A stretch of DNA of 64,000 nucleotides from Bacteroidota bacterium (GTDB lineage Bacteria; Bacteroidota; Bacteroidia; M30B66): positions 60,487 through 124,486 of the forward strand of contig JAIXUS010000008.1 in NCBI GenBank assembly GCA_027483445.1, in the 5' to 3' direction. The translations under genes and the position numbers were made by a program. The notes under the pieces are model-generated. The model saw nothing but the letters and a program-made list of their open reading frames with translations. It was not told where the DNA came from and searched no databases. Below are positions 1,070 through 45,918 of the stretch, piece by piece (the first letter of the stretch is position 1; each line of letters starts with the position of its first letter).

Positions 1070-1489
1070 CTATTTCAACTTCAACTGCGCAAAATAGGGA
1101 TGTTCCGGGTTCACAATGAGCTCATTTCGGAGTGGATGAATGAGTACATCCATTTCTTCCAGTGGAATCGCCCCTAACAATGGCTCTGCATCGCCCGGAA
1201 GCACCATGGCTCTGCCCGACCATTGCCTGTTTTTAAACCGAAGCTGCACCTGATCAACCACCGGACAATCGATAATTCGGTTATCGGCTGTTTGGGCCTT
1301 CTTTGAATCTACAATTGGCAATTGAAGCTGTTCCTGAATAGATTCGTTAATACACAGCATATAGGAACCTGTATCGACGAGTACATTTAAATGAATTCTT
1401 CGCACGTCTTCTTCAGCCATGAAATTTCTACGAGCTAAGACTAGATCTTCACCGTTAATTAGTTCAACTTCCGCGTAAACGAGTCCCAT
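1070..1489 (-). CDS. Retropepsin-like (clan AA) aspartic protease, stand-alone 139 aa
   Basis: A 'LVDTGSY' D-T-G-S active-site motif is followed by a hydrophobic flap region, with a size typical of single-domain bacterial retropepsin-like proteins. Confidence 0.65.
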   Translation of the reverse strand: MGLVYAEVELINGEDLVLARRNFMAEEDVRRIHLNVLVDTGSYMLCINESIQEQLQLPIVDSKKAQTADNRIIDCPVVDQVQLRFKNRQWSGRAMVLPGDAEPLLGAIPLEEMDVLIHPLRNELIVNPEHPYFAQLKLK

Positions 1490-1553: not shown

Positions 1554-1702
1554 GCGCCAGCGGTTGGAGCGGATACCCCGCAAAACAGAGCGGGAGCGGG
1601 AAAGCGCGAGAGCGGGCACTGTTTGAGGAGTATTAGCGAAAAACGCGGTGCCCTGCCAATACTGTTGAGGTGAAAACCGGAAGCTTACCAGGGCAGGCGC
1701 CC
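1554..1702. repeat. Conserved inverted-repeat-bounded element, copy A; candidate structured ncRNA or miniature repeat. The second copy is at 57812-57989.
   Basis: The conserved blocks 'gcgccagcgg.tg.agcggataccccg.aaaacagag' and 'ctgtttgaggagtat.agcgaaa.acgcggtgccc...gggcaggcgccc' are shared with copy B, while two internal segments differ. Compatible pairings are gcgcc/ggcgc, aaacag/ctgttt, atacccc/ggagtat and gtgccc/gggca. Confidence 0.8.
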
Positions 1703-1794
1703 AAAATCAATCGTTAAACGGCAAAATGTGTAATGTCTATTGAAATGGGCGATGCCATGCAGTATTGTTGGGCTTTACAAAGAAACCCACAATA

Positions 1795-9055: not shown

Positions 9056-11260
9056 TTAACGACGAGGTGAACTCATTCTGTTTCCGCCCGAAGGAGCACT
9101 TGGACGAGGGCTGCTACCCGGACTGCTCATGCGAGGGCTACTCTCCATGCGTGGTGAGCTCATTCTTGGACTACTCTCCATGCGCGGCGAGCTTATTCTT
9201 GGACTACTTTCCATGCGTGGGCTGGATTGCATGCGCTGTTCGCGTTGAGGTGTTTGATAGTTTTGATTCATGTTGCGCTGTTCGCGCTGAGGGCTTTGGT
9301 ACTGCTGAAAGTTATTTTGACGTTCAGGCTGACGTTGGTATTCCTGATAGTTGTTTCTTGGAACCGACTGTGGTTGGCGATACTGCTGTTGTTGCTGCGG
9401 CATCTGCTGGAAATTGTTCCTTGGTTGGCTTTCAGGTTGACGCATCTGCGGCTGCACCGGATTGCGTTGATCCATTTGAGGTTGACGGAAATCCTGCTGA
9501 CGGGGTTGTTGCTGAACAGGTTGATCGGGGCGAACCGATGGATTCATGGGCTGTCGTACATCGTTTGGACGAGTAATGGGCTGTGGTGAATACTGTTCGG
9601 GCCTTGTTGTAGGTTGCTGAGGACGCACAGTGGAAGGCTGCTGAGGGCGGACCACTTCGGGCGTATTATTCCGTATGGCGTTGTTGTAGTTGTAGTTAGG
9701 ATTGTACAACTCTTTCTGTGGAGTGCCCGTTACCGGCTGCCCGGGGCGCGATTGAAGTCCACCATTTGCAGGACTCACACCATTGCCGGGGTTTCGCAAA
9801 TCGTTGGATGGGCGTGTACCGAATGGTGAGCTTGGAGCATTGTCGGAAACTACCTGTGGTTGGTTAGAATTTACCGGAGCGCTGGTATAGTTGTCGGCTT
9901 TAGGGCGAACTACACCTTGCTGAATGAGCTGGTCTTTTCCGCTTCCACCTGAAGTAGCCGGGCTATACTGGTTTACTTTACCGGGCTGCTGAGCCTGAAT
10001 AGGCTGTGTGCCGGTTCCGGTTTGTTTTCCGGGCTGTTGAGCCTGTACAGGCTGAACTCCATTGGAAGTTTGTTTTCCGGGTTGCACAGGAGTGTTTATC
10101 TCCTGTTTTCCGGGACTTGATGGGTTTTGTACTCCACTCACGCCCGGTTTAGCACTGTTGTTCTGAACGTTGCCTGGAAGTTTTCCGCTACCAGAGTTAG
10201 CATTGTTTTGATTTACCGGGGTTGAGCCACCTTTTACATCTTGAGCTGTACCAAGGTTGTTCACCGGTTTTACAACATTACCTCCAGTTGAGTTTACCAC
10301 AGGCATTCCATCTTTTCCACTATGCGCTACAGAAGGCGTCATGCCGAGCTGCTTAGAAAAATTAGAAGTTAAGTTTGGAGCGGTCGTGAAGCCTGAACCT
10401 CCGCCAATACCTCCGGTGTTAGGACCAAATGATACGGGGGCGTTGAAGTTAAAGGTGTTATAATCAAAACTGTTGTAATACACAGGGTTATTGAACATGT
10501 TGTTCATCATCATGCCGTAGGCAAAACCATTGTTAAACCCTTGCTGATAGCCTAAACCGTAGTTGAACGGTGAATGGAAGAAGGGGTTGTAAGCGAATGG
10601 CGACATAAATGGATCGTAGCCCCAGTTATTCCAACGCCAAGGGTTGTTGAAATTCCAAGGATTGTTCCAAGGGTTGTTCCAGGAGTTGAATCCAATATTG
10701 AAGTGCCAGCCTGTGAAAGAGTTCCACCCAAAGTTGACCCCTGGAGTCCAGCTATTCCAACCCCAAGGTACAAATGGATTGAAGAAGGAGTAAGTGGAGT
10801 AGATTGAATTACCAAACATGAATGGATCATAATTGTACCAGTACATGTTTGTGAAGAAAGGGTCGTAATATCCAAAACCCGGCATTGGACGGTGGAAACG
10901 ACGTATGCGGGAAGCGAACATGTAATCGTAATAATCGTCCATGTCGTAATCCACGTCGTAGTAATTGTTTACGATAGGAGCGTCGCCGTTATTGTCGGGC
11001 ATTGAGGTATAGTCGTTTGCGCGCGCTCCGGATTGGTTATCGGGAGCATCAAAGCCGTCCATGTTTTCTACTGATTCGCGTGGGGCGGATTCAGCAGGTT
11101 GACTTTGATTGAGTTTTTTAAGTTGTCGGGCTTCCCTTCGAGCGTCAGCCAACGAATAATATCGGTCGTCGGCCTCAAAGCGAGCGGTGTTCCGGTTGGT
11201 GCTGCAGGAAGTGCTGAGGATCATCAACACAACTCCTGAAAGAATCGGTAGGAGTTTCAT
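9056..11260 (-). CDS. Low-complexity lipoprotein with three compositional zones: N/W/F/Y/P-rich, then Q/P/G-rich, then tandem [12 protein letters not shown]-terminal repeats
   Basis: The start is moved to the internal '[20 protein letters not shown]' (ATG verified at 11260-11258), giving a signal peptide and a Cys lipobox-like site. The rest of the protein has extreme compositional bias. Confidence 0.6.
9097..9228. repeat. Tandem 33-bp coding repeats encoding [11 protein letters not shown]
   Basis: Two near-identical 33-bp units, ctctccatgcg(t/c)gg(t/c)gagct(c/t)attcttggacta, are flanked by degenerate copies. Confidence 0.8.
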
Positions 11261-11372
11261 GGTACCGGGATTATGTAAAGTAAAAAGGGACATTCGGCGA
11301 AGGCAGCGGTTTTGTGTTAATTTTGCCGCTGACGACGCGATTTTTACAAATACCATACCACACAAAAAATAC

Positions 11373-12845
11373 ATGAGTAAAGTATTGGCAAGCCGTGAGG
11401 AAAATTACGCTCAATGGTACAACGATCTGGTAATCAAGGCCGATTTGGCCGATAACTCCGCTGTTCGCGGATGCATGGTCATTAAACCTTATGGTTACGC
11501 CATTTGGGAAAAAATGCAGCAGGCACTCGACCAGATGTTCAAAGACACCGGACATGTGAATGCCTATTTTCCTTTGTTCATTCCGAAATCGTTTTTAAGC
11601 AAAGAAGCGGCACATATTGAAGGTTTTGCCAAAGAGTGCGCTGTGGTAACACACTATCGTTTGAAGAATGATGAAAACGGAAAAGGCGTAATTGTAGATC
11701 CGGAAGCCAAACTTGAAGAGGAGCTCATTGTTCGACCAACATCTGAAACCATTATTTGGAACACCTACCGCGATTGGATTCAGTCGTACCGCGATTTACC
11801 ATTGTTGATTAACCAGTGGGCCAATGTTGTTCGCTGGGAGATGCGTACGCGGCTCTTTTTGCGTACGGCAGAGTTCCTTTGGCAGGAAGGGCATACCGCG
11901 CATGCCACAGCTGAAGAAGCGGTGGAGGAAACCCGTCGAATGCTGGACGTTTATGCCGATTTTGCGGAGAATTTCATGGCCATACCGGTGATTAAAGGTG
12001 TGAAAACGGCCAATGAACGTTTTGCCGGTGCAGTTGACACTTATTGCATCGAGGCGATGATGCAAGACGGTAAAGCCTTACAGGCCGGTACCTCGCACTT
12101 TTTGGGGCAGAACTTCGCCAAAGCATTTGAGGTGAAGTTTACCGGAAAAGATGGAAAACAAGACTACGTTTGGGCTACCTCATGGGGCGTTTCAACACGC
12201 TTGATGGGAGCGTTAATTATGACTCACAGCGACGATAAGGGCTTGGTTTTGCCTCCAAAATTGGCTCCTTTTCAGGTGGTTATCGTTCCAATTTATCGTT
12301 CCGACGAAGAATACCAGACGGTGTGCGATGCCGGGAGATCCATCAAAAAGGAGCTGGAGCGATTCGGCGTGCGGGTAAAACTCGACGACCGCGACACCCA
12401 CAAGCCCGGATTTAAATTTAATGAGTATGAGTTGCGTGGTGTTCCGCTCCGCATTGCCATTGGTCCGCGCGACGTGGCCAACGGAACAGTTGAGGTAGCC
12501 CGCCGCGATACCTTGGAAAAAGAAGTGCTGCAGTTGGCAGACCTGAGTAATAAGGTAGTACACTTGCTTGAGCAAATTCAGCAAAACTTGTATACAAAGG
12601 CTCTGTCGCACCGCGAACAAAACACCCACAGGGCAGACCATTGGGACGAGTTCATTCAAAAACTCGATATTGGAGGATTCGTTTATGCCCATTGGGATGG
12701 AACTGCCGAAACGGAAGAGAAAATTAAAACACTCACCAAGGCAACCATTCGTTGCATACCTTTAGGCAATCCTTCGGAGGAAGGAGCCTGTATCTTAACC
12801 GGAAAACCATCTACCCAACGGGTTATTTTTGCCCGTGCATATTGA
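11373..12845 (+). CDS. proS: Proline--tRNA ligase (archaeal/eukaryotic-type class II ProRS)
   Basis: The '[19 protein letters not shown]' N-terminus and class II aaRS motifs are present. The ATG is verified at 11373. It is transcribed divergently from the lipoprotein gene. Confidence 0.9.
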
Positions 12846-12852
12846 TTGAACT

Positions 12853-13539
12853 ATGGCGAATGCAGAGGAACTTATCCTTCAAACCCTCAAAGAGAAAGCC
12901 TGCTTAAAACAGGATATCTTCAAGCTGACCATCGATATTTTTGATGAGTTTAAGCAGGAACTCAGAAAAATTGCCGTTTCGCTCAATGAGCAGATTCAGC
13001 AGGTCGATAAGCGGGTGGTAATTGAGTACCACGAACGTTCGCCTTTTTCAATTTACATCAGAACTGCCGGCGATTTGCTCGTATTTGAAATGCACACCAA
13101 TGTGTTTCTTTTCGACAGCCAGCATAAGATATGGAATTTGAGCTACCTCGATGAGGACAGTACCCGTGGCTATTGCGGTTTAATCTCGATGTACAACTTC
13201 CTGTCAGATTCGATGAAGTACAAGCGAGTGAATGACGTTGGATATCTCATTGGTCGCTTGTTTGTGAACAAAGACAGACATTTTATCGTGGAAGGCAAGC
13301 GACAGATGGGGTTTTTGTACAACAATTTCTCTGCTGATGTTCTGAATTCAGAGCGTATTCGCGAGGTGATTCATTCAGCGATACTCTTCGTTTTGAATTT
13401 CGATTTGCTCACACCTCCGTATGAGGCGGTTCAGGAGGCTTCGATAAATCAGCTGAATGAAAATGCACAAATGATGAATTCGATAACCGGTAAGCGCCTC
13501 GGTTTTCGTTTTCACAATGATGAGGACCAGATTGTATGA
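12853..13539 (+). CDS. Hypothetical protein
   Basis: This is a 228-aa ORF in an operon position after proS, with no recognisable motif. Confidence 0.45.
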   Translation: MANAEELILQTLKEKACLKQDIFKLTIDIFDEFKQELRKIAVSLNEQIQQVDKRVVIEYHERSPFSIYIRTAGDLLVFEMHTNVFLFDSQHKIWNLSYLDEDSTRGYCGLISMYNFLSDSMKYKRVNDVGYLIGRLFVNKDRHFIVEGKRQMGFLYNNFSADVLNSERIREVIHSAILFVLNFDLLTPPYEAVQEASINQLNENAQMMNSITGKRLGFRFHNDEDQIV

Positions 13540-13981: not shown

Positions 13982-16900
13982 TTACCGTTTAATTATGGAT
14001 CTGCTGCCTTCGAATTCGATACGTTTGTCGTTGCTGATGTTTAAGTGATACACACCTGCCGGTAAGTCGTTAATGTCGAGGCGAATGCTGGAGCGGCCCT
14101 CTGAAATTTCGATGGGTGCCGACAAGAGTAACTGCCCGGCCGTGCTGAATATCGAAATGTTGGCCTTGGTTGCCTGATCGGCATTTAACTGTAGATCAAC
14201 AAATGCGCTTGCCGGATTTGGCGATAGTTGCAAGGTGTTGGTGGTGAATTGTTTACAGCTTACAAAAACAGGGTCGAAAATTTCGAAGTTTCCGTTAAAG
14301 TCGGTTTGACGCAAGCGCAGGTAACTTCCTTTTGAACCGCCAGGCTTAAGCGTAGCTTCATAACTTCTGGTGGTGTTTGAATTCCCTGCACCCTCGATAG
14401 CATATACCTTTTTCCAGCTGAGTGCATCTTCACTTTCTTCCAATTCGAACAAGCGATTATTAGCCTCTGATGCGGTGCTCCATCGAACCAAATACTGTTC
14501 TCCCAAGCATTCGGCTTCAAATGTTGCTAGTTTAATCGGTAAGGCATTGTTCTCTCTTGAACCACCTGTCCAAGTTGAAAATTCGGCAATATTACTCTTA
14601 ACAAGTTGGTTGTTGGTTGCATCGAGTGTTGCCCATTGAACATTCCAATACGCTCCATCGAAACGCCACAAGTCAAGCTCATTTTCGGCAATTGTTCCAA
14701 GTGGTGTGATAAGCTCATTGTCGAAGTAATTGAACTTTAGTGTTGCGTTGAGATTGCTGTTATTGGTTGGATGGATTTCATAGTACCTGTTAATCCCAAA
14801 ACCAGCATTGTAGGTTTGCTGTTGATGCCCTCTCACTACAGTAGTAAGCCCCATGTTGTTTGCACAGGTTAAGGTTGCCCCGAGCCCTGCCACATTCATA
14901 TCGCTAATGTTATTGAGGACACGCTGAGCGGTTATTGTGCCACTTGAACCCTGAATGCGGTTTTCGCTGTTTTCGTTAATTACCGTTCCTGTTGTACTCA
15001 GTTGGATGCTATTCCCATTTAGTTCAACATCGCCCGAAAGTAGATTGAGGTTCCCGAGTACGGTGATTGGAGTAGCCAAAAACAAGGCAAGGTCGCTCGC
15101 TGCTTTGTTAATGGTAAGGTTTGTAAATGTTGATGGCTGTCCCATTAACCGCGAAACTTGAGTTCCACTGAGTGTAACCGGACGACCATTCAAGCTTAGC
15201 TGTCCACCTACGTTTAAATCGCGCTGAATTTCAAGTGAGGCATCATTGTTTAGCGAAAGGCCAGAACCGGTGAGTATATTCAGGTTCGTTCCTGAAATAA
15301 AGTCGCCACTGAGTGTAGAGCTGCTATTGTTGATAATCATAGCCCCATTGCCTTGGGTAGCCCCACCTTGCGACTGAATGTTTCCAAAGACACTTAAGTT
15401 GTGGGTTGCAGGAATATTGATTATAACTCCCGAAGCCATTGACAAATCGCGACAAATGCCATTTGATCCGCTATGAATCGATGGCTGATTGGCCACCAAT
15501 CCTATAGTTACGTCATCGTTCATGTCTGGAACTTCGTTCGGCTGCCAATTGCCGGCAAGATTCCAGTTTGTATTCACATTTCCGGTCCAAATAAGTCCTT
15601 CAACAGCCTCTCCGGCCTGAAATAATCCAAATGCCGTTAATCCTGTGGTTTCGGTGAACAAAGGTTGGCCGGTGTTACTGCCATTCATGGTCCATAAGCC
15701 TCCTAGAAGTCGCGATGTTCTGAACGACAGTGGGTTGGCAGATGGGTCAAGGTCATTCGCGTTGAAGTTAAAACGTGCAGTGTAAGACGAGAAGCCAAGC
15801 AGCGACTGTGCACTCAGCGTCCATGTGCGGTTTACCGATTTTTGACTGTTAATGCCACTGAGGTACATGTCGGGATGATCGCCGGCGCTAGTGCTGGCCA
15901 TGAGACTGCCGCCATTGCCAATGGTACCGCTGAAACTAATTGCTACAGGGGCATACAGATTTTCATCGCCAACTTCAAAGTTTACAGCGGAAGTGGCTGA
16001 TTGAAGGCGTTTACGAAGATTGCCATGCACATAACTACTTGAGGATCCGCCCACCACAGTTCCCGACAATCCGATAATCAGTTCGTTGGCGTTGGTTTGT
16101 ACTAAACCTTGCATCAGGTTTAGGTGTAGAACATTCATTGAGGCTGTTAGCTCTTTTACACCGCCATTCACTATGCGAAGAGTGGTAAAATTGGTAGCTC
16201 CGCTGAGTGTTTGATTGGTTCCGTTCAATTCTACAATCCCCAGGCCTCCCGGAATAAAGCCACCCAAACCAACAAGGTTTGTCCAGTTTCCTTTTATCTG
16301 CATTTGGCGGTTAAATGTATTCGATACTTGGCCCGCCGAAATGAGCACATTGCCATTGATGATCAGATCGGCAGCCGGTAAGGTTTTAACACCTGAGCCG
16401 CTGAATGTTAAATGGTTGTAAACTGTTTGTACGGGAAGTGTAGCCGAAGAATTGGAACTATACTCAAAAGTTCCACCTACCGACGACACAAAGGCATTGT
16501 AGTTACCGCCCGGGAAAATAAAGGTGTTAGAGGGCGTTGGTGTAATTCTTACCAAACCGGTTCCGCTTACTACTCCAAAGTTGTGTCCGAACGTATTGCC
16601 GAGCACCAGATTGCCGTGGAGTACTGATGTTGGCGCGTTCTTATTGTTATCGGTAACGGTAATGGTGTGTCCGCTGGCGATGACAATATTTTTTCCGCTA
16701 GGCGCAACGGTTGCCGGCGGTCCATCATGTTGCAAGGTAATGTCGGTAGACCATGCGTTAAGGTCGTTCCAATTGCCTCCACTGGTAGCATTGCGGCTAA
16801 AGTAGGTTTGGATGATTCCAAACTCCGTGCTTTCGCCGGCCGTAAAGTCGCCGTTTAGATAGTTTACTGCACTCAGCGTTATTCTATCTGTGGCAGCATT

Positions 16901-19900
16901 TACAGTCGATGGAATTCCGCCCACAGGCACCCAAACGTTGTTGAAGTAACGACCAGCGCGGTAGTTCGCTTCTGTACCGTTGAGAGCATCACCGGGGAAG
17001 TAGGAGTATTGGTGGTTATAGGTTGCTCCAGGTGAGAAGCCGCTGCTAATCACACTCCAATAGAATTCGAGCTCAAGATTCGCAGCATCGGTTGTGGCAG
17101 GGTGTTTAATGTTTACCGGCTTCGCCGTGATGACACCTGCAGTTGAATTACCTGAAATACTGTATTCGGCTGGAGTGTACTTTAAGGTTGTTCCGAAAGG
17201 GAAATTGAAACTCATTTCTCCTGCCGCAAATTGTTTTCTCACTCCGGCATCCGACACTACACCATTCAACCGAATCATCATGTTTGGATTGATGGCTCCT
17301 GTTGCATTGGCATTCGCTGCAAAATTCAGCAGGAAGTTATTGATGTATAAAATGCCCTGGCTGAAATTGAGGTTCTCGTTGATGGTGAGTGCGGCGGTAA
17401 GCTCGGCACCCACCGAATTGGAAAGACGGAGCTTATCGATTGTAGCCTGTCCATTGCCCTGTATCAATTGATTGGTTGTTCCTCCAAGAACGAGGTAACC
17501 ACTTTCAGAGAAAACGTCATGCTGGCTTTGCACGTTGCCCAACACAGTCATGTTGTTGTTGCCTAAACTCAGGTCGCCTGCCGTTAGCGTTAAACTCCCG
17601 TTTACCCTTACCTGAGTATTGTTTTGCAATTGGATCGTAGCGGTAGGGTTGGTATTATGGATAACTAGGTTGGCAAAATTGGTCAGGTTGTTCAATACAC
17701 CAGTAATGAGCTGGCTTGAAGTAGAACCATTCATTGTTGTAATTTGCCCACTTGTTCCGGGTTTAAATCCTCCCGCATTAAGACCAATGGCACTGCTGGT
17801 ATGGGTGTTGGTGAAGTTTCCTCCAATATTGACATCAAAACCATTTGCTCTAAATTCGGAATTACCCTCAATAAAAAAATTGTTTAACACGTTGAGGGCC
17901 GCATTGGTGTTATTCACGAATTTATTGGTTGTTTGGCCATCGATACGGATATTGTAAAAAGGACTCAGAGAATACAGGTTAAATGAAGAGTTGGAAGGAG
18001 TATTGGCTGTTCCAATTACGACTTCACCTCCGGTCATTGAGAAGCTTGAAGGCGTTAAATAAATATCACCGAAAAAGTTGGATGGCAATCCTGAGCGATC
18101 GAGAATGAGCAAAGCGTTTTCCGTCATAGAAAACGAAGAGCCCTGGTTGAGAATTTCGAATTTTGCCCTGTCGAGATTGAAAGAACTCGCTGTTTCAGGG
18201 TTTTTTCCGCGTACAAGCACAGTGCTGTTTCCCGACTGCGAGTACTGCACGCTTCCTTGAACAGAGAATGTGCTTCTTCTGAACTGTCCATTGATGTTGA
18301 GCACACCATTGTTGCGCACATCTACCGATGGAGTTCCTGCAGCGCTGTATTCAAGGTCGTTGTGAGCTGTATTGCTTGCGGCACCGATGTTTACTGTACC
18401 ATCGAGAATTTCCAGTTGCCCGGCTAAAACTACATCTGAACCATTTGAGTTGTGTTGGGTGAGGTTTAGAATTGCTGATGGGTGGTTTACCGAAAGCTTT
18501 GTGCGCGCAGGAATTGAAAAGCTAAGATTGCTTTCATTGTTGATAAGCAACGAAACTGCCTTCGAAACACGGAATGTTCCGTTCATCAGGTTTAACCAGC
18601 TGCTGTTTGGCACCTGAATGTTACCGGCCATGGTTAGGTTGGTAAGCAGGGAGGCATCATCGCCTTTGTTGATGTGCAGCTGGAAGAAACTGGCAACAGC
18701 AGAAGCGTTGCTGCCATCAATAACAGCGGCCGAGTTTCCGGTCATCTCAATAATCCACTTTGAACTCTCGTTGCAACGCAGGTTACCGTTGATGCTCAAA
18801 TTTCCGTGCAGTTGGATGCGGTGCGATACGCCTGAAGCATGTGTGGCATTAACTGTAGCATCTGGACCTACAGTCATATTGCCAGCAATGTTCAGGATTT
18901 GTGCAAATTCACTTCTCGCGCTAAGTCGTCCTCCACTAACATTAAGGTTTCCACGAATTGTTATGGCATGCGAGGTATTTTCGGCCAGTGAGGCTTCTGC
19001 AGAAGGGGAATTACTGGTGATAGTAAGATCTTCGAAAATGGTAAGGTCGCGACCGGGCATGATGATTCGGTTGTTACTGCCAGGATTAATAATCAGGTTC
19101 CGATAGCTTGGAATTTCCATCAATGTGGGCGAAGCTGTTTGTGCAGGAATTGTGAAATTGCTGCCAACAGTGTAATATTCAGCAGTTCCACCATCGGGCT
19201 GGAAAAAGAGTCCAAAGTCGCCAGCAGGGAATTGTGCCGTTGCAGTGCTAGACGAAATGCGGATTTTACCGGCTCCTCCTGCGGTAGAGTAGGGTAGAGC
19301 CCCAAAGTTATTGCCTTGTGTGGTGCCTAAATCGAGCGTTGAGCCGGCATTAATGAGCAATGAGCCGGCAAGGGTGTTGTTTTGTGTAACAGTAACTGTG
19401 TGGTTAAACATAGAGCCATCACCAATAAAAACAGGAACATTCGCATTGGGAATGCTGCTTGATGCCGTTCCATTATGTCCAATGTTTGACCATGTTGCCG
19501 AGCTGTTCCAGTTTCCGTTTGCGCGGCTGTAAAATGGCACAACTGTTCCAAACGCTGCAGGTATACCGGCTGTATAATCGCCTTCAAATTTGTTAAACGG
19601 GCTAAACTGGATATCGTTTGTGCTCTCATTCACCGCGTTAACGTTGTTTACTGTTGTGTAAGCTATTTCGGCGTAGTTGTAGTACCCTGGAATGTAAGCT
19701 GTATTATCGGGTAGGTTCCCATAATTGAAGGTGAGGTTTATGGAGTTTGCTGCAATGCCACTAAACCCGTTTTGGTTGAGTTTCCAATAGTATGAGAATG
19801 CATTGGGGTTGGTAACATACAATTGCTGCGCGTTAACAGGTCGAAGGTCAATAGTTCCTATTGTTGCAGGAGCAGTTGTAAATGCTACTGTAGCCGGAGT

Positions 19901-22900
19901 GTAGTTGGTGCCGGTACCGAATGGAAAGATGAAACTAAGAGCAGCCGGAGCATAGGTTTTTGCAATACCTCCATCGGAGAGGAATCCACGGGTTTTGATA
20001 AATCGGGTTGATGAAAATCCGCCAGCTCCGGCAGTAATGGTAGCGGTTGCATCGACCGTTAATCGGAAGTTTTGAATGTCGAAAACCCTTTCTGTGTTGA
20101 GGTTTAGGTTGGCGTTTACCCTAAATCCTGCCGTGGCAGCGGTTTGTACAGATCCAGTACTTCCACCTGAATTCGAGAGGGTTAGGTTCCGTATTTCACC
20201 GTCACCGTCACCGAAGATAGTTTGTAAGTTACTACCGCTCAAGTTAATGGCTGCGGTGCCTGTTCCATAAATTCGGGTGTTGTTTGTAACGTTCGCATCC
20301 ACATTCAGATTTTTATTGGCATGGTTGAGTTCACCCATATTCACCAATAAATTTCCTCGAATATTCAGCTGAGTTGCCGCTCCAGTAATCTGAAGTGTAC
20401 TATTTCCAGGCTTATCTAATACAAGTGAGTTTATCCCAGTATTTGTATTTGGCTGATAAGGGCTTGCAGTACTTCCGCTTTCAACTTTCATTCCCCACAC
20501 GTAAATACCCATTGCTGTGTTACCTACATATGAAGTTTGGCAGCTTCCATTACCTAGGGCGAGGCGCGCTTGGTATTGATTGCTACCATTTGATGTTGCG
20601 CTAATCCGATACCAACCATCGGCGAGGGCTGTAATTGAAGTACCCTGAATTCCGCCGGATGTTGAGGTTACACTGCCGCCGCCGGTAAGATTAAAGTTAG
20701 CAACGGCCACCGAAGCGCCTGGGCCAACCTGTAAAGAAACACAGTTCCTTCCGGCCGGTTTAACATGAATAGATACTGTTACCTGACCGCCAGCACTTGG
20801 TATTGTTGGTGTACTAAAGCGGTGAAGGCCGTTTTCGGTTGTTTCATTCAGGAGTTCGGCACTTTGTACTCCATTGGGTGAAATCCCCGAATTTTGAGTT
20901 GAAGTGAGACGTTCGAAGGAATAATTGGTTCCCGGTATAATTGCTTCAGGTCCATTAATCAAGCTAGATCCACCAGAACTCTCAAAAAGGGTAACACCAT
21001 TCAATGCGAAATTCTGTGTTGAATTACTGATAAATCGAATAGAGTTGTTCCCGGAAATGAGGGTAGAATTGGAATTGATATTCAAATTTCCGGCAATTAT
21101 CAGGTCCTGATCCATCGCATTCAAAGCAGGAGAATTGCTGCTTAAAATGGTTAGATCGTTTAAAATTGTTAAGTCCGACGCAGGTACGTTGGTGCGGGTT
21201 GCTTCAGAGCCTGTTATCGACCAGTCGACAGAATTCAATCGAACCTGTGCAGTTCCGGCAGTAGCTCTGCCAATGTTGACCGTATGCAAAGGCACAGTGG
21301 AGGTAACATCGAGGTGTATGTTTCCAGTTGTATTGAAGTTAACGGTACCACCACTCACCTCATAGTTTGCAGAAGTTGAGGCTACCATGAATCCCCCGTT
21401 TGGCGTAATACCGCCTGTTGAGGTTCGGGTGATTGTAATAGTGCCTCCCGACATTTTGAACACATTTTCGGGATATGGAAGCGAGAAAATTGAATAAAAG
21501 CTTTGCTCGGTACCCCCATTTCCAAGAAGATTAAGCGTTCCGGAAGTCATTTCGAAAGAACCCCTGTGGGTTGTTGCGGTTACCGAAGTTCTGATGATTC
21601 CGGCAACAACGGTACCACCAAAAATTTCAATTGCACCGGATTCACGGATCACAATAGCCTTTTGCCCGTTCTGACACGTAAATGTACCCGAAGTAATTCG
21701 AATTGTTCCGTAAGGAACTACTGCACCACCTAAACCACCATCGGTAATGTTTGCGCCATCAATCCATAAACGTGGAACCGCAGTGGGGCTTCCCAAATCG
21801 AAGTTTCCACCTCCACCTCCAATAAGCACGGGTATATTGATGTTTTCGCCAAAACGTAAAGTGCCATTTCCGTTGACCTGGAAAGTGTTTCCTCGATTTA
21901 CAAAAGAGACATTTGCCCCGGAAGCGGCAGCTACAAGAAGCTGAAAGCCGGTTGATTTCGTTGAGCTGAATCCATAAAATGTGGTGTTACTTCCTGCATT
22001 TAGCTGGATGCTTGTATTGGCATTACTACCCTGTATATTCAGGTTTGCAGCGCCATTTGTGGCATTGGCGTAATCGGCACTATTGGTAAAGTCAATGGTT
22101 CCGCTGCTGGTAAGGTTGCCATGAATATTAATCGTATGAACAGCATTGAAATTACCGGTTAGCCATGTGCATCCGCCACCTAAAGCAACATTGCGCATAA
22201 TGGTAATTGTTCGTGGGGTGGTTGAGTTGCCTACAACAAAAGTATTAGTGCCTGAACCGGTGCGGTCAAGGCTTAAGTTACCATTAATGGTGAGGTTATG
22301 ATTCAGAATCAGGCTCGTAGCTGTTGAAGTACTGTTCGTGTACTCGAGGTTGTTGTAAGTGTTTAGTGTACTATTCAACTCCAGTGGCGTTGCTCCAATG
22401 TTGTAGTATTCAATTGTTCCTCCTGTGGAACTCACGAATTGGGTGTAATTGCCGTTAGGCAGTGATGTGGATGACAACCGGAGTTTCCCTTCACCGCTGA
22501 TGGGACCAAATTGATGGCCTGAAGAGCTGCCTAAGTCGAGCACTCCGCCTTGTTGAATGGTAACTGAGCCAACTGTTGTTGCCGCAGCCATATTGTTTAC
22601 AGTACGGCCATTGAGGATTATTATTTGATCTCCGGCTTGAGGTACCATCGGGCTTACCAAGGTGTTGCCTGAAGGGTCGGTTGTCCAGGTGTTGGCTGAG
22701 TTCCAATCGCCCGATTGATATGAATACAAGGCTGAACGCATGGTTGGGTCGATGGCTGTCCACGAACCACTTAAGATGGTGGTACCGTTTGAGGTAAACG
22801 GATTAGAGCCCGGGGCGGAAGGAGAGTTTGGTATGATTAGATTATTGCCATCCCACAAGCGTGGAGAATACAGCGAAACCGAGCCAATTACTTCTTCAGG

Positions 22901-24598
22901 ATTGAAGTTGAAGCGAACGTTCGCGCTTATTCCTGACATGTTAACTGTTTCGATTAACCAGTGCTTTGTGAGCGCATTGTTGAAGTAGGGAATGTTTGGT
23001 TGGCGTGTAGGTGTGGCTTTAACGTAAAGATTGGCGGTTCCAACAAGTGTAGCAGTTAAAGATTGAAGGGTCATCGGCGAATAAAATCCACCGGATCCAA
23101 CGGGGTATAAGCCTGCACTCACCATGTCGGTAGTAAAGTCGGCGGTGCTTAGACCTTCTTTAATTAAAAAGCCTTCGCCATCGGTAATAAAATATCGTGT
23201 TGCGCTGAATGTACCCGAGAGAGAGCCTTGGGGTGCGATTTTCATGGAGTTATCGCCCAATGAAACGTAATAGCTTCCGGCGGCAGTTAGATTTACATTT
23301 CCGGCCGCTCTAATGGCTCCTCCTAAACTTTTTACTCCACTACCCGCGAAAAAAAGTGACTGGTAATTGGTGCTTGGAAAAACCTCCTGATCGCCCATTC
23401 TATTGTATTGCACCCGTGCCGAAACGTTGTCAGATTCAAGGCTTCCAATACTGTTGTGTTCTCCTCCCAGATTTAAGATGTGTGCCGCTCCATTCATGCG
23501 GATGGTTCCATTTCCCGAAAGGTCATCGTTAACGGTAACAGTTCTTGCCGCAGTGCCAAAGTTGAACACACCACCCGAAACTGTTAGTTTTCCTGTTGTG
23601 ATGTTATTGTTGAGAAGGCTTAAGCTTGAGCCGGCTTTGCTGATGATGATTTCTTCAAATGTTAATGCCGTATTCGTGGTGAGACTTGCTGCAAATGAGC
23701 CTGTAAATGTTTGAATTCCGGTTAGCACCAACGTTCCATTGGTTCTGATGAAATCGCCGGCTACTTCAATGGACGGAATCGTTTTTGTTCCTGCAGCGGT
23801 AAAGCTGATGTGGAAATAGCTTCCCGCTCGAATTTCCTGCGTCGAGCCTGCATATTCAACTGTATTTCCGGTGGCAGTTACATTAAATGTACCGGCCGAT
23901 TGCATGGGCTGGTTAGCTCCAAGGTACCGCAGTCGGACATTGGAAGCATTCAAAAAGGTAGAATTCACCGCAGTGCCATCCAACGAAACAGGAATTACCA
24001 ATCCACTCGAGTGCAAGCAGTTGTTAATGAGTGTTATATTTCCTTGGATAATGACATTGTCGATGGAAATTGAGCCGCTTCCGCTAAGTGTTTGAGAAGT
24101 GGTCGAGAAGCGAGCCGTGCTTGAAGCCGTTAACGCGATAATGCCACCATTTGAAATGCCATTGCGAAATTCCAGTTGAGCTTCAACGCCTGTGTTATTG
24201 TCTAATCGGCCTGATGATGAGATACTGACCGGTCCGCGGAAGACTTTTGGCTGGCCCACAGCAATCACTCTGAAAGTTCCGTTGATTGAGGTGGTGCTAT
24301 TTATTTGCACAGCTGATGCGCCAACCGATAAAGTTCTACTGGCGTTTATAGTAAGGTTGTTTATTTCGACGGCGGCATCAATTGTCATGTTGTGGTTAAT
24401 CACCACATTGTCGTTGGGGCCGGGTGTTCCTGCTGGAGTCCAGACCTGAGCTGACCACGCATTTGTTGAGGTGCTGGTATACGTTACCTGTGCTCCTGCC
24501 TTAAATGTCATACCTAGAATTAGAATAGGCAGAAGGAAAGTAATGGCCAGGGAAGGCGACTTTTTAAAGACGTTTATTAGAGTAGAATTTTGGATCAT
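13982..24598 (-). CDS. Giant (3538 aa) secreted surface protein with a T9SS C-terminal sorting domain, probably an adhesin
   Basis: It has a signal peptide. The body is extremely Asn/Thr/Ser/Gly-rich and beta-solenoid-like, with internally duplicated modules. The last roughly 80 aa contain the 'SPNPA...VDL...AGVYHLNI' T9SS CTD signature. Confidence 0.85.
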   Translation of the reverse strand: MIQNSTLINVFKKSPSLAITFLLPILILGMTFKAGAQVTYTSTSTNAWSAQVWTPAGTPGPNDNVVINHNMTIDAAVEINNLTINASRTLSVGASAVQINSTTSINGTFRVIAVGQPKVFRGPVSISSSGRLDNNTGVEAQLEFRNGISNGGIIALTASSTARFSTTSQTLSGSGSISIDNVIIQGNITLINNCLHSSGLVIPVSLDGTAVNSTFLNASNVRLRYLGANQPMQSAGTFNVTATGNTVEYAGSTQEIRAGSYFHISFTAAGTKTIPSIEVAGDFIRTNGTLVLTGIQTFTGSFAASLTTNTALTFEEIIISKAGSSLSLLNNNITTGKLTVSGGVFNFGTAARTVTVNDDLSGNGTIRMNGAAHILNLGGEHNSIGSLESDNVSARVQYNRMGDQEVFPSTNYQSLFFAGSGVKSLGGAIRAAGNVNLTAAGSYYVSLGDNSMKIAPQGSLSGTFSATRYFITDGEGFLIKEGLSTADFTTDMVSAGLYPVGSGGFYSPMTLQSLTATLVGTANLYVKATPTRQPNIPYFNNALTKHWLIETVNMSGISANVRFNFNPEEVIGSVSLYSPRLWDGNNLIIPNSPSAPGSNPFTSNGTTILSGSWTAIDPTMRSALYSYQSGDWNSANTWTTDPSGNTLVSPMVPQAGDQIIILNGRTVNNMAAATTVGSVTIQQGGVLDLGSSSGHQFGPISGEGKLRLSSTSLPNGNYTQFVSSTGGTIEYYNIGATPLELNSTLNTYNNLEYTNSTSTATSLILNHNLTINGNLSLDRTGSGTNTFVVGNSTTPRTITIMRNVALGGGCTWLTGNFNAVHTINIHGNLTSSGTIDFTNSADYANATNGAANLNIQGSNANTSIQLNAGSNTTFYGFSSTKSTGFQLLVAAASGANVSFVNRGNTFQVNGNGTLRFGENINIPVLIGGGGGNFDLGSPTAVPRLWIDGANITDGGLGGAVVPYGTIRITSGTFTCQNGQKAIVIRESGAIEIFGGTVVAGIIRTSVTATTHRGSFEMTSGTLNLLGNGGTEQSFYSIFSLPYPENVFKMSGGTITITRTSTGGITPNGGFMVASTSANYEVSGGTVNFNTTGNIHLDVTSTVPLHTVNIGRATAGTAQVRLNSVDWSITGSEATRTNVPASDLTILNDLTILSSNSPALNAMDQDLIIAGNLNINSNSTLISGNNSIRFISNSTQNFALNGVTLFESSGGSSLINGPEAIIPGTNYSFERLTSTQNSGISPNGVQSAELLNETTENGLHRFSTPTIPSAGGQVTVSIHVKPAGRNCVSLQVGPGASVAVANFNLTGGGSVTSTSGGIQGTSITALADGWYRISATSNGSNQYQARLALGNGSCQTSYVGNTAMGIYVWGMKVESGSTASPYQPNTNTGINSLVLDKPGNSTLQITGAATQLNIRGNLLVNMGELNHANKNLNVDANVTNNTRIYGTGTAAINLSGSNLQTIFGDGDGEIRNLTLSNSGGSTGSVQTAATAGFRVNANLNLNTERVFDIQNFRLTVDATATITAGAGGFSSTRFIKTRGFLSDGGIAKTYAPAALSFIFPFGTGTNYTPATVAFTTAPATIGTIDLRPVNAQQLYVTNPNAFSYYWKLNQNGFSGIAANSINLTFNYGNLPDNTAYIPGYYNYAEIAYTTVNNVNAVNESTNDIQFSPFNKFEGDYTAGIPAAFGTVVPFYSRANGNWNSSATWSNIGHNGTASSSIPNANVPVFIGDGSMFNHTVTVTQNNTLAGSLLINAGSTLDLGTTQGNNFGALPYSTAGGAGKIRISSSTATAQFPAGDFGLFFQPDGGTAEYYTVGSNFTIPAQTASPTLMEIPSYRNLIINPGSNNRIIMPGRDLTIFEDLTITSNSPSAEASLAENTSHAITIRGNLNVSGGRLSARSEFAQILNIAGNMTVGPDATVNATHASGVSHRIQLHGNLSINGNLRCNESSKWIIEMTGNSAAVIDGSNASAVASFFQLHINKGDDASLLTNLTMAGNIQVPNSSWLNLMNGTFRVSKAVSLLINNESNLSFSIPARTKLSVNHPSAILNLTQHNSNGSDVVLAGQLEILDGTVNIGAASNTAHNDLEYSAAGTPSVDVRNNGVLNINGQFRRSTFSVQGSVQYSQSGNSTVLVRGKNPETASSFNLDRAKFEILNQGSSFSMTENALLILDRSGLPSNFFGDIYLTPSSFSMTGGEVVIGTANTPSNSSFNLYSLSPFYNIRIDGQTTNKFVNNTNAALNVLNNFFIEGNSEFRANGFDVNIGGNFTNTHTSSAIGLNAGGFKPGTSGQITTMNGSTSSQLITGVLNNLTNFANLVIHNTNPTATIQLQNNTQVRVNGSLTLTAGDLSLGNNNMTVLGNVQSQHDVFSESGYLVLGGTTNQLIQGNGQATIDKLRLSNSVGAELTAALTINENLNFSQGILYINNFLLNFAANANATGAINPNMMIRLNGVVSDAGVRKQFAAGEMSFNFPFGTTLKYTPAEYSISGNSTAGVITAKPVNIKHPATTDAANLELEFYWSVISSGFSPGATYNHQYSYFPGDALNGTEANYRAGRYFNNVWVPVGGIPSTVNAATDRITLSAVNYLNGDFTAGESTEFGIIQTYFSRNATSGGNWNDLNAWSTDITLQHDGPPATVAPSGKNIVIASGHTITVTDNNKNAPTSVLHGNLVLGNTFGHNFGVVSGTGLVRITPTPSNTFIFPGGNYNAFVSSVGGTFEYSSNSSATLPVQTVYNHLTFSGSGVKTLPAADLIINGNVLISAGQVSNTFNRQMQIKGNWTNLVGLGGFIPGGLGIVELNGTNQTLSGATNFTTLRIVNGGVKELTASMNVLHLNLMQGLVQTNANELIIGLSGTVVGGSSSSYVHGNLRKRLQSATSAVNFEVGDENLYAPVAISFSGTIGNGGSLMASTSAGDHPDMYLSGINSQKSVNRTWTLSAQSLLGFSSYTARFNFNANDLDPSANPLSFRTSRLLGGLWTMNGSNTGQPLFTETTGLTAFGLFQAGEAVEGLIWTGNVNTNWNLAGNWQPNEVPDMNDDVTIGLVANQPSIHSGSNGICRDLSMASGVIINIPATHNLSVFGNIQSQGGATQGNGAMIINNSSSTLSGDFISGTNLNILTGSGLSLNNDASLEIQRDLNVGGQLSLNGRPVTLSGTQVSRLMGQPSTFTNLTINKAASDLALFLATPITVLGNLNLLSGDVELNGNSIQLSTTGTVINENSENRIQGSSGTITAQRVLNNISDMNVAGLGATLTCANNMGLTTVVRGHQQQTYNAGFGINRYYEIHPTNNSNLNATLKFNYFDNELITPLGTIAENELDLWRFDGAYWNVQWATLDATNNQLVKSNIAEFSTWTGGSRENNALPIKLATFEAECLGEQYLVRWSTASEANNRLFELEESEDALSWKKVYAIEGAGNSNTTRSYEATLKPGGSKGSYLRLRQTDFNGNFEIFDPVFVSCKQFTTNTLQLSPNPASAFVDLQLNADQATKANISIFSTAGQLLLSAPIEISEGRSSIRLDINDLPAGVYHLNISNDKRIEFEGSRSIIKR

Positions 24599-31578: not shown

Positions 31579-31974
31579 GAATTTGGCAGGCATCAAAGCT
31601 GTTTGAATGCGGTTGCATACTGATTAAAAGTTATAGGAATCGAAGCAATACGACCATTGCATCATTATCAAATTCGCCATTTCGCAGTTTTTGTGCTGAA
31701 TTGGGGCTGATTGTCCTCGCTTTTTGTTGGTATTCAGGCTATTAATCCCAGGTTTAATACGAGTCTGAACAAATGCTTATTCAAACGATTTCATGAAGCC
31801 TGTGCCTGCCTGTTTTGCTTCTTTCTGCTAGGAAAATTCCAAAATACAGAATTCGCACAGCTGAATTGTATGCGCTGTATTTCAGGCTTTTCAGCACGCT
31901 TACAATTTAGTCGATGGGTGTTAACCTATCTGAATTCGAATCTTTAAGCATGATGACCGAATTTGCTAAATCAG

Positions 31975-32116
31975 TTCAGCGTATTGACTGAATTAGATTA
32001 AAAATCGTCAGTTAACTGACTGAATTTAATTAAAACCAGTCAGTGTAATGACGATATTTGATTAAAAAACGTCAGTTAACTGACTGAATTTTATTGAATA
32101 TCGTCAGTTGCTGGAG
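31975..32116. promoter_or_regulatory. Array of four phased GTCAG...TGAC palindromic sites (two tandem 64-bp units) immediately upstream of the DUF4143 ATPase gene
   Basis: The 14-bp perfect palindrome GTCAGTTAACTGAC occurs at 32007 and 32071. Variant sites lie at 32039 (GTCAGTGTAATGAC) and 32103 (half-site GTCAGTTG), giving an exact 32-bp spacing within conserved 'gattaaaaa.c' contexts. Confidence 0.7.
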
Positions 32117-44071: not shown

Positions 44072-44144
44072 GCCGAAGTAGCTCAGCTGGTAGAGCAGCT
44101 GATTTGTAATCAGCTGGTCGGGGGTTCGAGTCCCTTCTTCGGCT
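44072..44144 (+). tRNA. tRNA-Thr (anticodon TGT)
   Basis: A manual cloverleaf was drawn with acceptor gccgaag/cttcggc, anticodon loop ttTGTaa and T-loop ttcgagt. No CCA is encoded. Confidence 0.85.
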
Positions 44145-44176
44145 CTGTTCTTTGTAGTACTTAGTACAAGGAGGTT

Positions 44177-44262
44177 GGGGAGATAGCCAAGTGGCCAACG
44201 GCAACAGACTGTAAATCTGTCCTCTTCGGAGTTCGCAGGTTCGAATCCTGCTCTCCCCACCA
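44177..44262 (+). tRNA. tRNA-Tyr (anticodon GTA), long variable arm, CCA encoded
   Basis: Acceptor ggggaga/tctcccc, anticodon loop ctGTAaa, a long variable arm and a 3' CCA were identified. Confidence 0.85.
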
Positions 44263-44310
44263 CGAAAAAAACGGTTGGAGCTGCACTTGCCGTTGCAGCG
44301 ACAACTAAAA

Positions 44311-44386
44311 GCGGAAGTAGCTCATTTGGTAGAGCATCAGCCTTCCAAGCTGAGGGTGGCCGGTTCGAGCCCGGTCTTCCGCTCCA
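44311..44386 (+). tRNA. tRNA-Gly (anticodon TCC), CCA encoded
   Basis: Acceptor gcggaag/cttccgc, anticodon loop ctTCCaa and T-loop ttcgagc were identified. Confidence 0.85.
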
Positions 44387-44408
44387 ATTTGGTTCTTTTG
44401 AACCAGAA

Positions 44409-44480
<72 letters not shown>

Positions 44481-44539
44481 CAACCACAGCAACATCAATT
44501 AACACACACACTCAAACAAATCAAAAACAAACACTAGCC

Positions 44540-45727: not shown

Positions 45728-45831
45728 TCTGCTTAAACTCATCATTAAAAGGTGCATCGACCCTTATACGGTCGTGCACCTTTTCAAAGTGTATAGCCCT
45801 CCCTTCTTTCTGAAGGCTTGAAAACAAACAC

Positions 45832-45904: not shown

Positions 45905-45918
45905 CAAATCTGACGACC

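Follow-up and report, generated by a model that had tools for sequence, protein, structure and literature searches.

What kind of element is repeated, block by block, at two distant intergenic sites in the genome of an uncultured freshwater bacterium? The sites lie in a 64,000-nucleotide stretch of contig JAIXUS010000008.1 (positions 60,487 to 124,486 of the forward strand) from a Bacteroidota bacterium, referred to below as the window, and are termed copies A and B. A first-pass annotation of the window had described them as a two-copy element, either a structured noncoding RNA or an RNA-based mobile mini-element, and not a coding repeat. The sequences are noncoding and fold, as it had claimed, but they belong to a dispersed, multi-copy and patchily distributed family rather than to a two-copy RNA gene; nine further copies turned up in congeners. 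The family is previously undescribed, without similar sequence in Rfam or the annotated collections searched. A and B are genus-restricted, dispersed, structured intergenic repeats, best read as being of the REP/BOX/ERIC kind; tentatively, we regard them as acting in cis on minus-strand read-through RNA.

The blocks TTTTTGCGCCAGCGGnTGnAGCGGATACCCCGnAAAACAGAG, CTGTTTGAGGAGTATnAGCGAAAnACGCGGTGCCC and GGGCAGGCGCCCAAAA are found in both copy A (1548–1709) and copy B (57806–57996). In the pairwise alignment the three common blocks have the same order and orientation on the plus strand, and two segments without sequence kinship separate them. These boundaries are the hits of a covariance model, R1; the first-pass annotation had the locations right, though the element is slightly longer than it had indicated. 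Copies A and B are approximately 160–190 nt in size, the units of the family as a whole span about 130–230 nt, and the element ends have the form TTTTGGGCGCC...GGCGCAAAA. The block-by-block match proposed earlier is confirmed by the alignment and by shuffling. The shared blocks are approximately 35 nt each against a chance expectation of 0, and each long-block pattern has exactly two matches in the window (≤3 mismatches) and none in 100 dinucleotide shuffles. A repeat search of the window returned the same A/B pairs. All four single-base differences between the blocks of A and B are located at unpaired positions or at a covarying pair of the fold described below.

The idea that A and B reflect a chance resemblance, a coding repeat or an assembly artefact is refuted as firmly as such comparisons allow. 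Mechanically called open reading frames (ORFs) do overlap some copies (57765–57932 on the minus strand of the window, 55 aa, and 33–299 in locus L002), but they have no conserved frame or start codon between copies, the length differences of the inserts are not multiples of 3, and the covariation matches a nucleic-acid fold. Chance is countered by the shuffles, and an artefact by the presence of the element in independent assemblies from NCBI, ENA, JGI and Logan.

The single-stranded form of each unit is a three-way junction whose minus-strand layout is 5'-UUUUGG-P1-P2-CC-P3/P4/P5/P6-U-P1-3'. P1 is the 5-bp closing helix (GCGCC/GGCGC). P2 directly follows P1 and consists of a 5-bp stem, UGCCC and GGGCA, with a loop in between, and a two-nucleotide linker leads from P2 to the long arm. 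The long arm begins with P3 (GCG/CGC), followed by a single mismatch, a Watson-Crick pair that varies among the copies, and a U-A pair. A 3×3 internal loop lies between the U-A pair and P4 (GC/GC), beyond which P5 (AUACUCC/GGGGUAU) and P6 (AAACAG/CUGUUU) continue the arm. The apical insert caps the long arm, and a single U returns to P1. The helices gcgcc/ggcgc, aaacag/ctgttt, atacccc/ggagtat and tgccc/gggca, which the first-pass annotation had read from the two copies, are all present and backed by covariation.

Covariation was computed in a seven-sequence version and then on 10 distinct copies. In the 10-sequence set, 92.6% of cells are paired and nine pairs show compensatory double changes. 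None of 500 column shuffles equals the observed value in any of five pairing measures, and the pairing falls to 35–45% when the partners are slid by 1–3 columns. P1, P2, and P3 are 100% paired across the copies. P1 occurs as GCGCC/GGCGC, GCGCA/TGCGC and GCGGC/GCCGC, which are compensatory variants, and P2 has four invariant pairs with a fifth that is C-G, U-A or U·G. The first P3 pair changes from G-C to C-G in two divergent copies, and the variable long-arm pair (1564/1642 in copy A) is U-A, G-C or C-G. In the copy at L001, P6 is wholly substituted by GTAG..GGCGGC/GCCGCC..CTAC. RNAalifold, given the plus-strand sequences and no structure, returned the same junction with seven doubly changed pairs. 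Pairings of 5–6 bp between the P2 loop and the downstream flanks were judged to be at chance level. A point on the other side should be noted: the folding energies of single sequences are not better than those of shuffles on either strand (z −0.7 to −1.6). Because of this, the structural evidence is the covariation and not the stability.

Conservation extends beyond the paired positions. The unpaired junction and internal-loop nucleotides are nearly invariant in all copies, the divergent ones included, and only the middle nucleotide of the internal loop is free to vary. UUGG/CCAA adjoins P1 in all 11 copies of the alignments. Between the paralogues A and B the blocks are 94% identical while the P2 loops and the apical inserts are unrelated; since the loops have been randomised to this extent, the similarity of A and B does not come from recent copying. 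Between B and its orthologue in a sister species (L058B), approximately 8% of the positions differ in the blocks, 22% in the P2 loop, and approximately 50% in the 45-nt spacer from the stop codon to the element; a compensatory P1 pair is among the differences in the blocks. The genes around these two copies are only 83.6% identical. Copy A and its orthologue in L036 differ by approximately 5.5% in the blocks and approximately 13% in loop and flanks, with two of the four block changes weakening pairs. Copies persist at orthologous sites across species. These comparisons show purifying constraint both on the fold and on those nucleotides of the blocks that do not pair. The argument for selection is tempered, because two paralogues of one genome, L002 and L058B, share derived states (GCGCA/TGCGC and GUGGUAU) that are absent from the true orthologue B. 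This sharing points to gene conversion or recent copying in that genome, which could mimic site-by-site selection.

The two inserts had been described as differing wholly in sequence and length. This description holds for the sequence of insert 2, the P2 loop, but its length is constant at 36–39 nt in 11 of 11 copies; apart from the 5-bp stem, RNAalifold detected no consensus structure in this hairpin. At the tip of the long arm, insert 1 is a tandem array of hexanucleotides, now decayed, that reads (CTCCCA)n on the minus strand. The A-orthologues in L036/L037 have 11.5/12.5 units of CTCCCA/CTTCCA/CTCTCA on the minus strand, an expansion relative to copy A (Tandem Repeats Finder: period 6, 12.5 copies, unit CTCCCA). 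The unit number varies from approximately 5 to 12.5 between orthologues, and by one unit between strains. Over 20.4 kb, L036 differs from L037 by 129 substitutions and a single indel (99.34% identity), and this sole indel is one 6-nt unit inside the array of the element. The array is slippage-prone and fast-mutating.

The stretch between the two P5 strands is 43–111 nt long and contains, on the minus strand, 39–53% C and 8–19% G in 8 of 11 copies, which make up the main subfamily. Insert 1 of copy A (43% C and 19% G on this strand) is hexamer-periodic, and the inter-P5 stretch of copy B contains 47% C and 8% G. The last 20 nt of insert 1 in copy B (CTCTCACTCCCACACTCACT on the minus strand) are identical in the orthologue at L058. 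The loops of A and L025 are approximately 30 nt long. Read on the plus strand, insert 1 is G-rich with GGGAG/GGAGG motifs, and some copies fit a G3N1-9 pattern.

R1, built in the minus-strand orientation of the window and run over every fetched locus, detects 11 copies in total, A and B included. A-orthologues are located in L036 and L037, together with a divergent copy C (68 bits). The copies L001, L002, L003a, L003b and L058 belong to one metagenome-assembled genome (MAG) of a sister species. The L058 copy is the orthologue of B, beginning 39 nt past the GH3/beta-lactamase stop codon on the same strand, and L003b is located 130 nt from L003a in the inverted orientation. L036C and L003b are the two divergent copies of the family. 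An exact-pattern scan of 185,579 species genomes, one genome per species, matched one MAG only, "Bacteroidetes bacterium RE-18aug17-170" (CANHCM01), at three loci (L001–L003). A metagenome scan with an independent block-1 pattern gave 31 loci, which is about chance level, and the further copy L025 is the only real one among them. Contigs L059, L060 and L061 carry the start of the B-orthologue; with L039, they are four short-read contigs that enter the element, and all four stop within it, as is expected of repeated or length-variable sequence in short-read assemblies. At least 3–5 copies per genome have been observed so far. Subfamilies span genomes: in the B type the insert begins and ends alike, and the A type is found in L025 as well.

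Judging from BLASTN of flanking genes, the window, L036/L037, L065 and the MAG are approximately 83–85% identical in nucleotides and therefore represent different species of one genus. The names of homologous proteins place the lineage near Chitinophagaceae (Flavipsychrobacter, Filimonas). The family is restricted to this one uncultured freshwater Bacteroidota genus. BLASTN against plasmid and phage records gave no match to the element, and two pattern scans of IMG/VR viral contigs followed by the model gave chance hits only. Approximately 370 kb of relatives' loci, partly redundant, were fetched via homologues of the aspartic protease (87–97% identity), DUF3467, and GH3 (74–75% identity); no copy was found there at E≤1. 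The congeners L065/L067 have the gene order of the window but no copy A, and their entire spacer is different; no empty site with matching flanks is available for copy A from these two loci. Relatives with GH3 at 74% identity have only 7–56 nt at the position of copy B.

Three observations on neighbouring repeats may be recorded here. Congeners without copy A have another pyrimidine microsatellite, (TTTCCCC)3, on the same strand of the kinase-protease spacer (L065 9850–9900; L067; L038 3620–3660). A second repeated motif, TAGGGCCTACTGAAAAA, which contains the near-palindrome GTAGGGCCTAC, is located at 36–52 of L002 (minus strand) and 4449–4465 of L003 (plus strand), that is, 18–30 nt upstream of two element copies of the MAG with the same orientation relative to each; this motif may belong to the element as a 5' module or represent a REP-like family of its own. 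B-type copies also have a loosely conserved extension past the element, AGTCG...(G)TCTTTAGAGAG-like (L002 270–310; L003 4161–4190; L058 9993–10030; window 57770–57805), and the repeated unit of this subfamily may be approximately 30–40 nt longer.

The copies are located just past the 3' ends of genes, and all of their neighbourhoods consist of housekeeping genes. Copy A is located between the terminator of the nucleoside-diphosphate kinase gene and a promoter-like TATTTTTG box of the aspartic-protease gene, which we take to be a −7 box from the Bacteroidetes promoter consensus TAnnTTTG. Copy B occupies a convergent gap and starts 37 nt past the GH3/beta-lactamase stop codon. The element begins 37–49 nt past a co-directional stop codon in B, L058B, L001 and L003a, and the co-directional upstream gene is at a greater distance in A, L036C, L003b and L025. 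In L003, where two copies are inverted relative to each other, each one comes after a gene of its own. In the GH3 spacer, a hairpin and a U-run leading into UUUUGG are kept in three species despite diverged sequence. In the relative L062, where the element is absent, GH3 is followed by a strong, GC-rich terminator that is bidirectional (12940–12995); the element-bearing species have only the weak hairpin and U-run there. The coordinates of the features in the window are collected in Table 1.

A discrete transcript of 150–180 nt, which the first-pass annotation had envisaged, is not indicated. No TAnnTTTG −7 box was found upstream of nine copies on either strand, and sigma-70 and terminator scans gave only the terminators of neighbouring genes, with no terminator after the element. 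The element itself is not an intrinsic terminator: an A-run and not a U-run comes after the closing helix on either strand, and the U-run of the minus strand precedes the element. The position of copy A upstream of the retropepsin gene, which the first-pass annotation had pointed out, is incidental. Protease genes 87–97% identical in relatives have no element beside them; proteins 87–93% identical are found in unrelated neighbourhoods without it, and the 97%-identical aspartic protease, in a window-like gene order, is also without it. We therefore reject that the element travels with this gene.

The clan AA aspartic-protease gene itself (window 1070–1489, minus strand) has these 87–93% identical homologues in wholly different neighbourhoods (L040–L050), next to a P-type ATPase upstream or to PIN/DUF433 and ParE/DUF4160 toxin-antitoxin genes. 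Either the gene may be mobile or the genomes may be heavily rearranged.

Which strand is functional should be considered separately, since the proposed actions depend on it. The minus strand is somewhat the likelier of the two. A conserved U·G pair in P5, and U·G at the fifth P2 pair in three copies, read C·A on the plus strand. The orientation of the copies is a further argument for the minus strand, which is co-directional with the upstream gene at 6 of 7 loci (A, B/L058B, L003a, L003b, L036C, and L025). Several observations weigh against this assignment. The count of loci is small, so that the orientation bias is suggestive only, and at L001 the co-directional stop is 49 nt away while the stop of the opposite gene is only 18 nt away. 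On the plus strand, the 3×3 loop reads 5'-GNA-3'/5'-GRA-3' with G and A invariant and the middle position free, and the single mismatch is G·A, swapped to A·G in L003b. The conservation of these nucleotides has the pattern expected of sheared G·A pairs, which are typical of RNA. One P4 change in L036 gives G·U on the plus strand and A·C on the minus strand. The full fold is recovered de novo by RNAalifold on the plus strand only, with an energy slightly better on that strand, and CCA or CCCA follows the 3' strand of P1 in 11 of 11 copies on the plus strand. The minus-strand call of the first-pass annotation thus finds some support in the U·G/C·A pairs and the co-directional loci, while the tandem-GA loop and RNAalifold favour the plus strand.

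Table 1. Coordinates of copies A and B, their structural parts and the neighbouring transcription signals in the window
Feature	Position	Strand	Details and basis
Copy A, whole element	1548–1709	− (model orientation = window minus)	cmsearch with R1, 169.7 bits, full length
A, P1 first half (GCGCC on plus)	1554–1558		Pairs with 1696–1700; paired in every copy (100%), with compensatory variants
A, long arm, first strand	1560–1579		P3 1560–1562; covarying pair 1564; 3×3 loop 1566–1568; P4 1569–1570; P5 1573–1579
A, P6 around insert 1	1583–1624		AAACAG 1583–1588 / CTGTTT 1619–1624; insert 1 1589–1618
A, long arm, second strand	1627–1646		P5 1627–1633; P4 1636–1637; loop GAA 1638–1640; covarying pair 1642; P3 1644–1646
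A, P2 hairpin	1649–1695		TGCCC 1649–1653 / GGGCA 1691–1695; loop 1654–1690
A, P1 second half (GGCGC on plus)	1696–1700		Covariation, RNAalifold
A, conserved unpaired tail	1701–1706		CCAAAA on plus = UUUUGG before P1 on minus; alignments
Copy B, whole element	57806–57996	−	cmsearch with R1, 197.7 bits, full length
B, P1 first half	57812–57816		Pairs with 57983–57987; orthologue L058 has compensatory GCGCA/TGCGC
B, long arm, first strand	57818–57837		P3 57818–57820; P4 57827–57828; P5 57831–57837
B, P6 around insert 1	57841–57912		57841–57846 / 57907–57912; insert 1 57847–57906
B, long arm, second strand	57915–57934		P5 57915–57921; P4 57924–57925; P3 57932–57934
B, P2 hairpin	57937–57982		Stem 57937–57941 / 57978–57982, loop between
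B, P1 second half and CCAAAA tail	57983–57993		P1 57983–57987; tail 57988–57993; sequence, alignment
Presumed Bacteroidetes-type −7 box (TATTTTTG) of the aspartic-protease gene	1504–1511	−	Between copy A and the ATG; sequence reading
Intrinsic terminator, nucleoside-diphosphate kinase gene	1797–1822	−	Approximately 90 nt upstream of copy A on the minus strand
Strong intrinsic terminator, rpoBC-DUF3467 operon	57536–57570	+	Approximately 240 nt before copy B on the plus strand
Spacer from the GH3/beta-lactamase stop codon to copy B	57997–58035	−	Stop codon 58033–58035; weak hairpin + U-run into the element

The element does not correspond to a known RNA family, as the first-pass annotation had supposed; the Rfam search that it had proposed found no match for any copy searched. 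Rfam 15 at the gathering threshold over the whole window returned nothing on either copy, and relaxed searches (E≤10 on A and B, E≤5 on four other copies) returned nothing over the conserved core; the only overlaps are sub-threshold matches to long noncoding RNA sequences at 9.8 and 14.8 bits. A tRNA or tmRNA is rejected on account of ARAGORN, which finds only the five canonical tRNAs at 44072–45905, the lack of an Rfam match, a P1 of 5 bp and a P2 loop of 36–39 nt. For an integron attC site, the ends lack the RYYYAAC ... GTTRRRY core motifs, and housekeeping genes, not cassettes, flank the copies. A hammerhead is rejected since UGNAG...GAAA is located in a two-strand internal loop and not at the junction, with no Rfam ribozyme match, and the likeness of AAACAG/CUGUUUU to helix 1 of the hairpin ribozyme is limited to that hexamer, again with no Rfam match. 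Resemblances to K-turns, dif sites, retrons, and group IIC introns were rejected by eye.

As for transposable elements, the ends TTTT(GG)GCGCC / GGCGC(CC)AAAA form an imperfect 9–11-bp inverted repeat, but their GCGCC part covaries as a helix would, unlike a protein-binding site. No target-site duplication flanks the nine copies inspected, and no transposase, integrase, reverse transcriptase or HUH-type gene was found in the window or beside any copy; the window and the fetched loci also hold no autonomous insertion sequence with matching ends that could be a parent. Many copies with duplications and without covariation would have indicated a transposable element of the miniature inverted-repeat kind (MITE) according to the first-pass annotation; what we found is covariation and no duplication. 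The REP/REPIN class is rejected because the fold is branched and 130–230 nt long, with no conserved GTAG. The modular architecture is BOX-like, conserved blocks surrounding a period-6 array of variable unit number, without sequence homology to BOX.

Comparison with described repeats is useful for judging what the family could do. Pneumococcal BOX elements (boxA-boxB(n)-boxC) are likewise small dispersed intergenic repeats with pairing end modules, variable internal tandem units and much secondary structure; they are co-transcribed with neighbouring genes and are considered mostly parasitic, with slow turnover and a narrow host range of one species plus its nearest relatives (PMC3049150). Unlike BOX, which has an internal unit of 45 nt and more than 100 copies per genome, the present family has a 6-nt microsatellite and at least 3–5 copies seen, shares no sequence similarity with it, and has a three-way junction, strongly conserved unpaired bases and orthologous copies kept across species. 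The BrickBuilt MITE of Porphyromonas gingivalis, also from Bacteroidota, resembles it in being always intergenic and species-limited, with a tandem array between leader and tail and small inverted-repeat ends, but differs in its 23-nt repeats (1–23 units), leaders and tails of up to approximately 300 nt, and internal promoters (PMC4596501). No three-way junction or covariation has been reported for BrickBuilt, and there is no sequence relationship. REP/BIME, REPIN and ERIC sequences are structured palindromic repeats that, like the present copies, occupy convergent intergenic regions and the 3' ends of genes. REPs protect the mRNA upstream of them from 3' exonucleases and are able to promote termination by Rho. 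A REP, however, is a simple 20–40-nt hairpin with a conserved GTAG and a cognate RAYT gene, in contrast to the branched unit of approximately 130–230 nt with a microsatellite tip; no RAYT gene was seen in the window or the fetched loci, whole genomes not having been scanned. ERIC is one imperfect palindrome of approximately 127 nt, also unlike this fold. REPINs are inverted doublets (PMC3116915), and compensatory substitutions in such repeats have been discussed in a review (PMC3184786).

The C-rich, G-poor minus-strand RNA past a gene end is reminiscent of Rho utilization (rut) sites. A rut site is at least about 60–80 nt of C-rich, G-poor, unstructured RNA downstream of a gene. Rut-like composition is found in the 8 of 11 copies of the main subfamily, but rut sites are not usually placed on a conserved scaffold, and the loops of A and L025 are shorter than typical ones. 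On the plus strand, the fold is like the tRNA-like domain of tmRNA in that the ends pair, a hairpin stacks via a continuous 3' strand, the long arm has a large variable insertion, and CCA follows the terminal helix. It is unlike that domain in that the terminal helix is 5 bp and not 7, and there is no T-loop, G3·U70 or tag reading frame.

For the cis-acting repeat that we tentatively favour, we infer a Rho or exonuclease mechanism. Polymerase that passes the weak terminator of the upstream gene would transcribe the element as a tail of that gene's RNA, and the GC-rich junction would provide a stable 3' structure and thus an exonuclease barrier, as in REP and BOX. In the main subfamily, 30–90 nt of unstructured RNA, rich in C and poor in G, would also be exposed for Rho or a different RNA-binding protein to land on. 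Such a landing site would limit read-through into the convergent or downstream gene, and changes in the unit number of the array would tune its function. A function of this kind at the level of the host is favoured because the orthologues outconserve the neighbouring coding DNA and the paralogues keep their blocks with randomised loops. What speaks against it should be noted together. The copies lie after terminators, and only read-through transcripts would contain them. L001, L036C and L003b have short ordinary hairpins instead of the C-rich loop, and because of these copies the landing site cannot be the function of the whole family. The distribution among relatives is patchy, as seen in the fetched loci and in L065/L067, and the derived states shared by L002 and L058B are open to the explanation by copying given above.

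These last points belong equally to a purely selfish, non-autonomous element, MITE-like or mobilised as a folded single strand (REP/REPIN, IS200/IS605-derived), which is the main rival and a real possibility although not the outcome we expect. The fold and the unpaired bases would then be a recognition structure for an enzyme acting in trans, their conservation would come from selection for mobility and gene conversion, and gene 3' ends would be safe insertion sites. Dispersal over unrelated housekeeping neighbourhoods, patchiness among approximately 85%-identical congeners with an empty site in the GH3-74% relatives, the inverted-repeat ends, and the subfamilies shared across genomes are as expected of such an element. 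So are the extra 5' or 3' modules common to some copies, the inverted L003 pair resembling a REPIN doublet, the internal tandem arrays known in BOX and BrickBuilt (PMC3049150, PMC4596501), and the breaking of assemblies within the element. The lack of target-site duplications, of mobility genes in the window or beside the copies, and of matches in plasmid, phage, and IMG/VR collections, however, speaks against it. No clean empty site with matching flanks is seen for copy A, the whole spacer being different. An immobile parasite should moreover decay, whereas orthologues remain in place with approximately 92% block identity next to a neutral spacer that has diverged by approximately 50%, and the randomised loops of A and B argue against recent copying.

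Two further readings give more weight to the RNA itself. According to one, which we consider quite improbable, the copies are genes of a trans-acting small RNA family on the plus strand whose topology is like that of tRNA/tmRNA: P1, with CCA after it, would correspond to an acceptor stem and P2, stacked on it, to a T arm, and the tandem G·A pairs would be part of the long arm. Its G-rich array (GGGAG/GGAGG, Shine-Dalgarno-like and G-quadruplex-prone) would be a sponge or binding platform whose site number is varied by slippage. The G·A loop with its swapped mismatch, the de novo junction, the invariant CCA or CCCA and the G·U change in L036 all agree with this, and two sequences, (GGGAGT)4 of L036 and GGGAGGG...GGGAGGG of L025, conform to the quadruplex pattern G3N1-9. 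It is opposed by the absence of a TAnnTTTG box upstream and a terminator after the copies, by the C·A mismatches in P5 and, in three copies, P2, and by the 5-bp P1 and the P2 loop without a T-loop, on which ARAGORN and the Rfam tRNA/tmRNA models are silent. The G-rich array is also missing from three copies, and at 6 of 7 loci an RNA of the plus strand would run antisense to the nearest gene upstream. The other, broader reading is unlikely but deserves mention: a new structured bacterial RNA class and not a parasite, in which the three-way junction, with its tandem-GA loop and its invariant UUGG/CCA tail, would be a conserved scaffold for displaying a hypermutable microsatellite loop. Such copies would be phase-variable modules to which Rho or some other RNA-binding protein is recruited (minus strand), or tRNA/tmRNA-like sponges mimicking Shine-Dalgarno sequences (plus strand). 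Bacteroidota largely dispense with Shine-Dalgarno pairing.

Other features of the window are listed here for completeness. The segment 44072–45905 contains tRNA-Thr/Tyr/Gly/Thr, tuf, tRNA-Trp, nusG, rplKAJL and rpoBC in the usual arrangement, and copy B is located at the far end of this highly expressed tRNA-tuf-rpoBC block. At 31968–32109, approximately four tandem 32-nt units, each with the palindrome CGTCAGTTAACTGACTG, are located directly upstream of an AAA_14/DUF4143 ATPase gene (32138–33277) and resemble an array of operators or iterons. The 33-nt and 42-nt tandem repeats at 9138–9220 and 9232–9315, within a 772-aa ORF (9056–11374, minus strand), are probably coding repeats. One 3538-aa ORF occupies 13982–24598 on the minus strand; in the relative L062, a giant 3583-aa protein is encoded in the corresponding block, there adjoining the GH3 gene, which indicates a rearrangement of approximately 27 kb.

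If the description given here is correct, it adds a well-supported family of structured repeats, from an uncultured freshwater Bacteroidota genus, to those described. For small bacterial repeats, the branched covarying fold, the unpaired bases that outconserve neighbouring coding DNA, and a hexanucleotide variable-number tandem repeat located exactly at the tip of an arm are unusual. In practical terms, short-read assemblies break at the element, and strains could be told apart by its array. Should it prove to be only a parasite, the list of REP-, BOX- and ERIC-type repeats would gain one more ordinary entry. Since orthologues, lineage absences and strain length variants all exist, the family is a natural test of whether such a repeat is a parasite or a co-opted 3'-end module.

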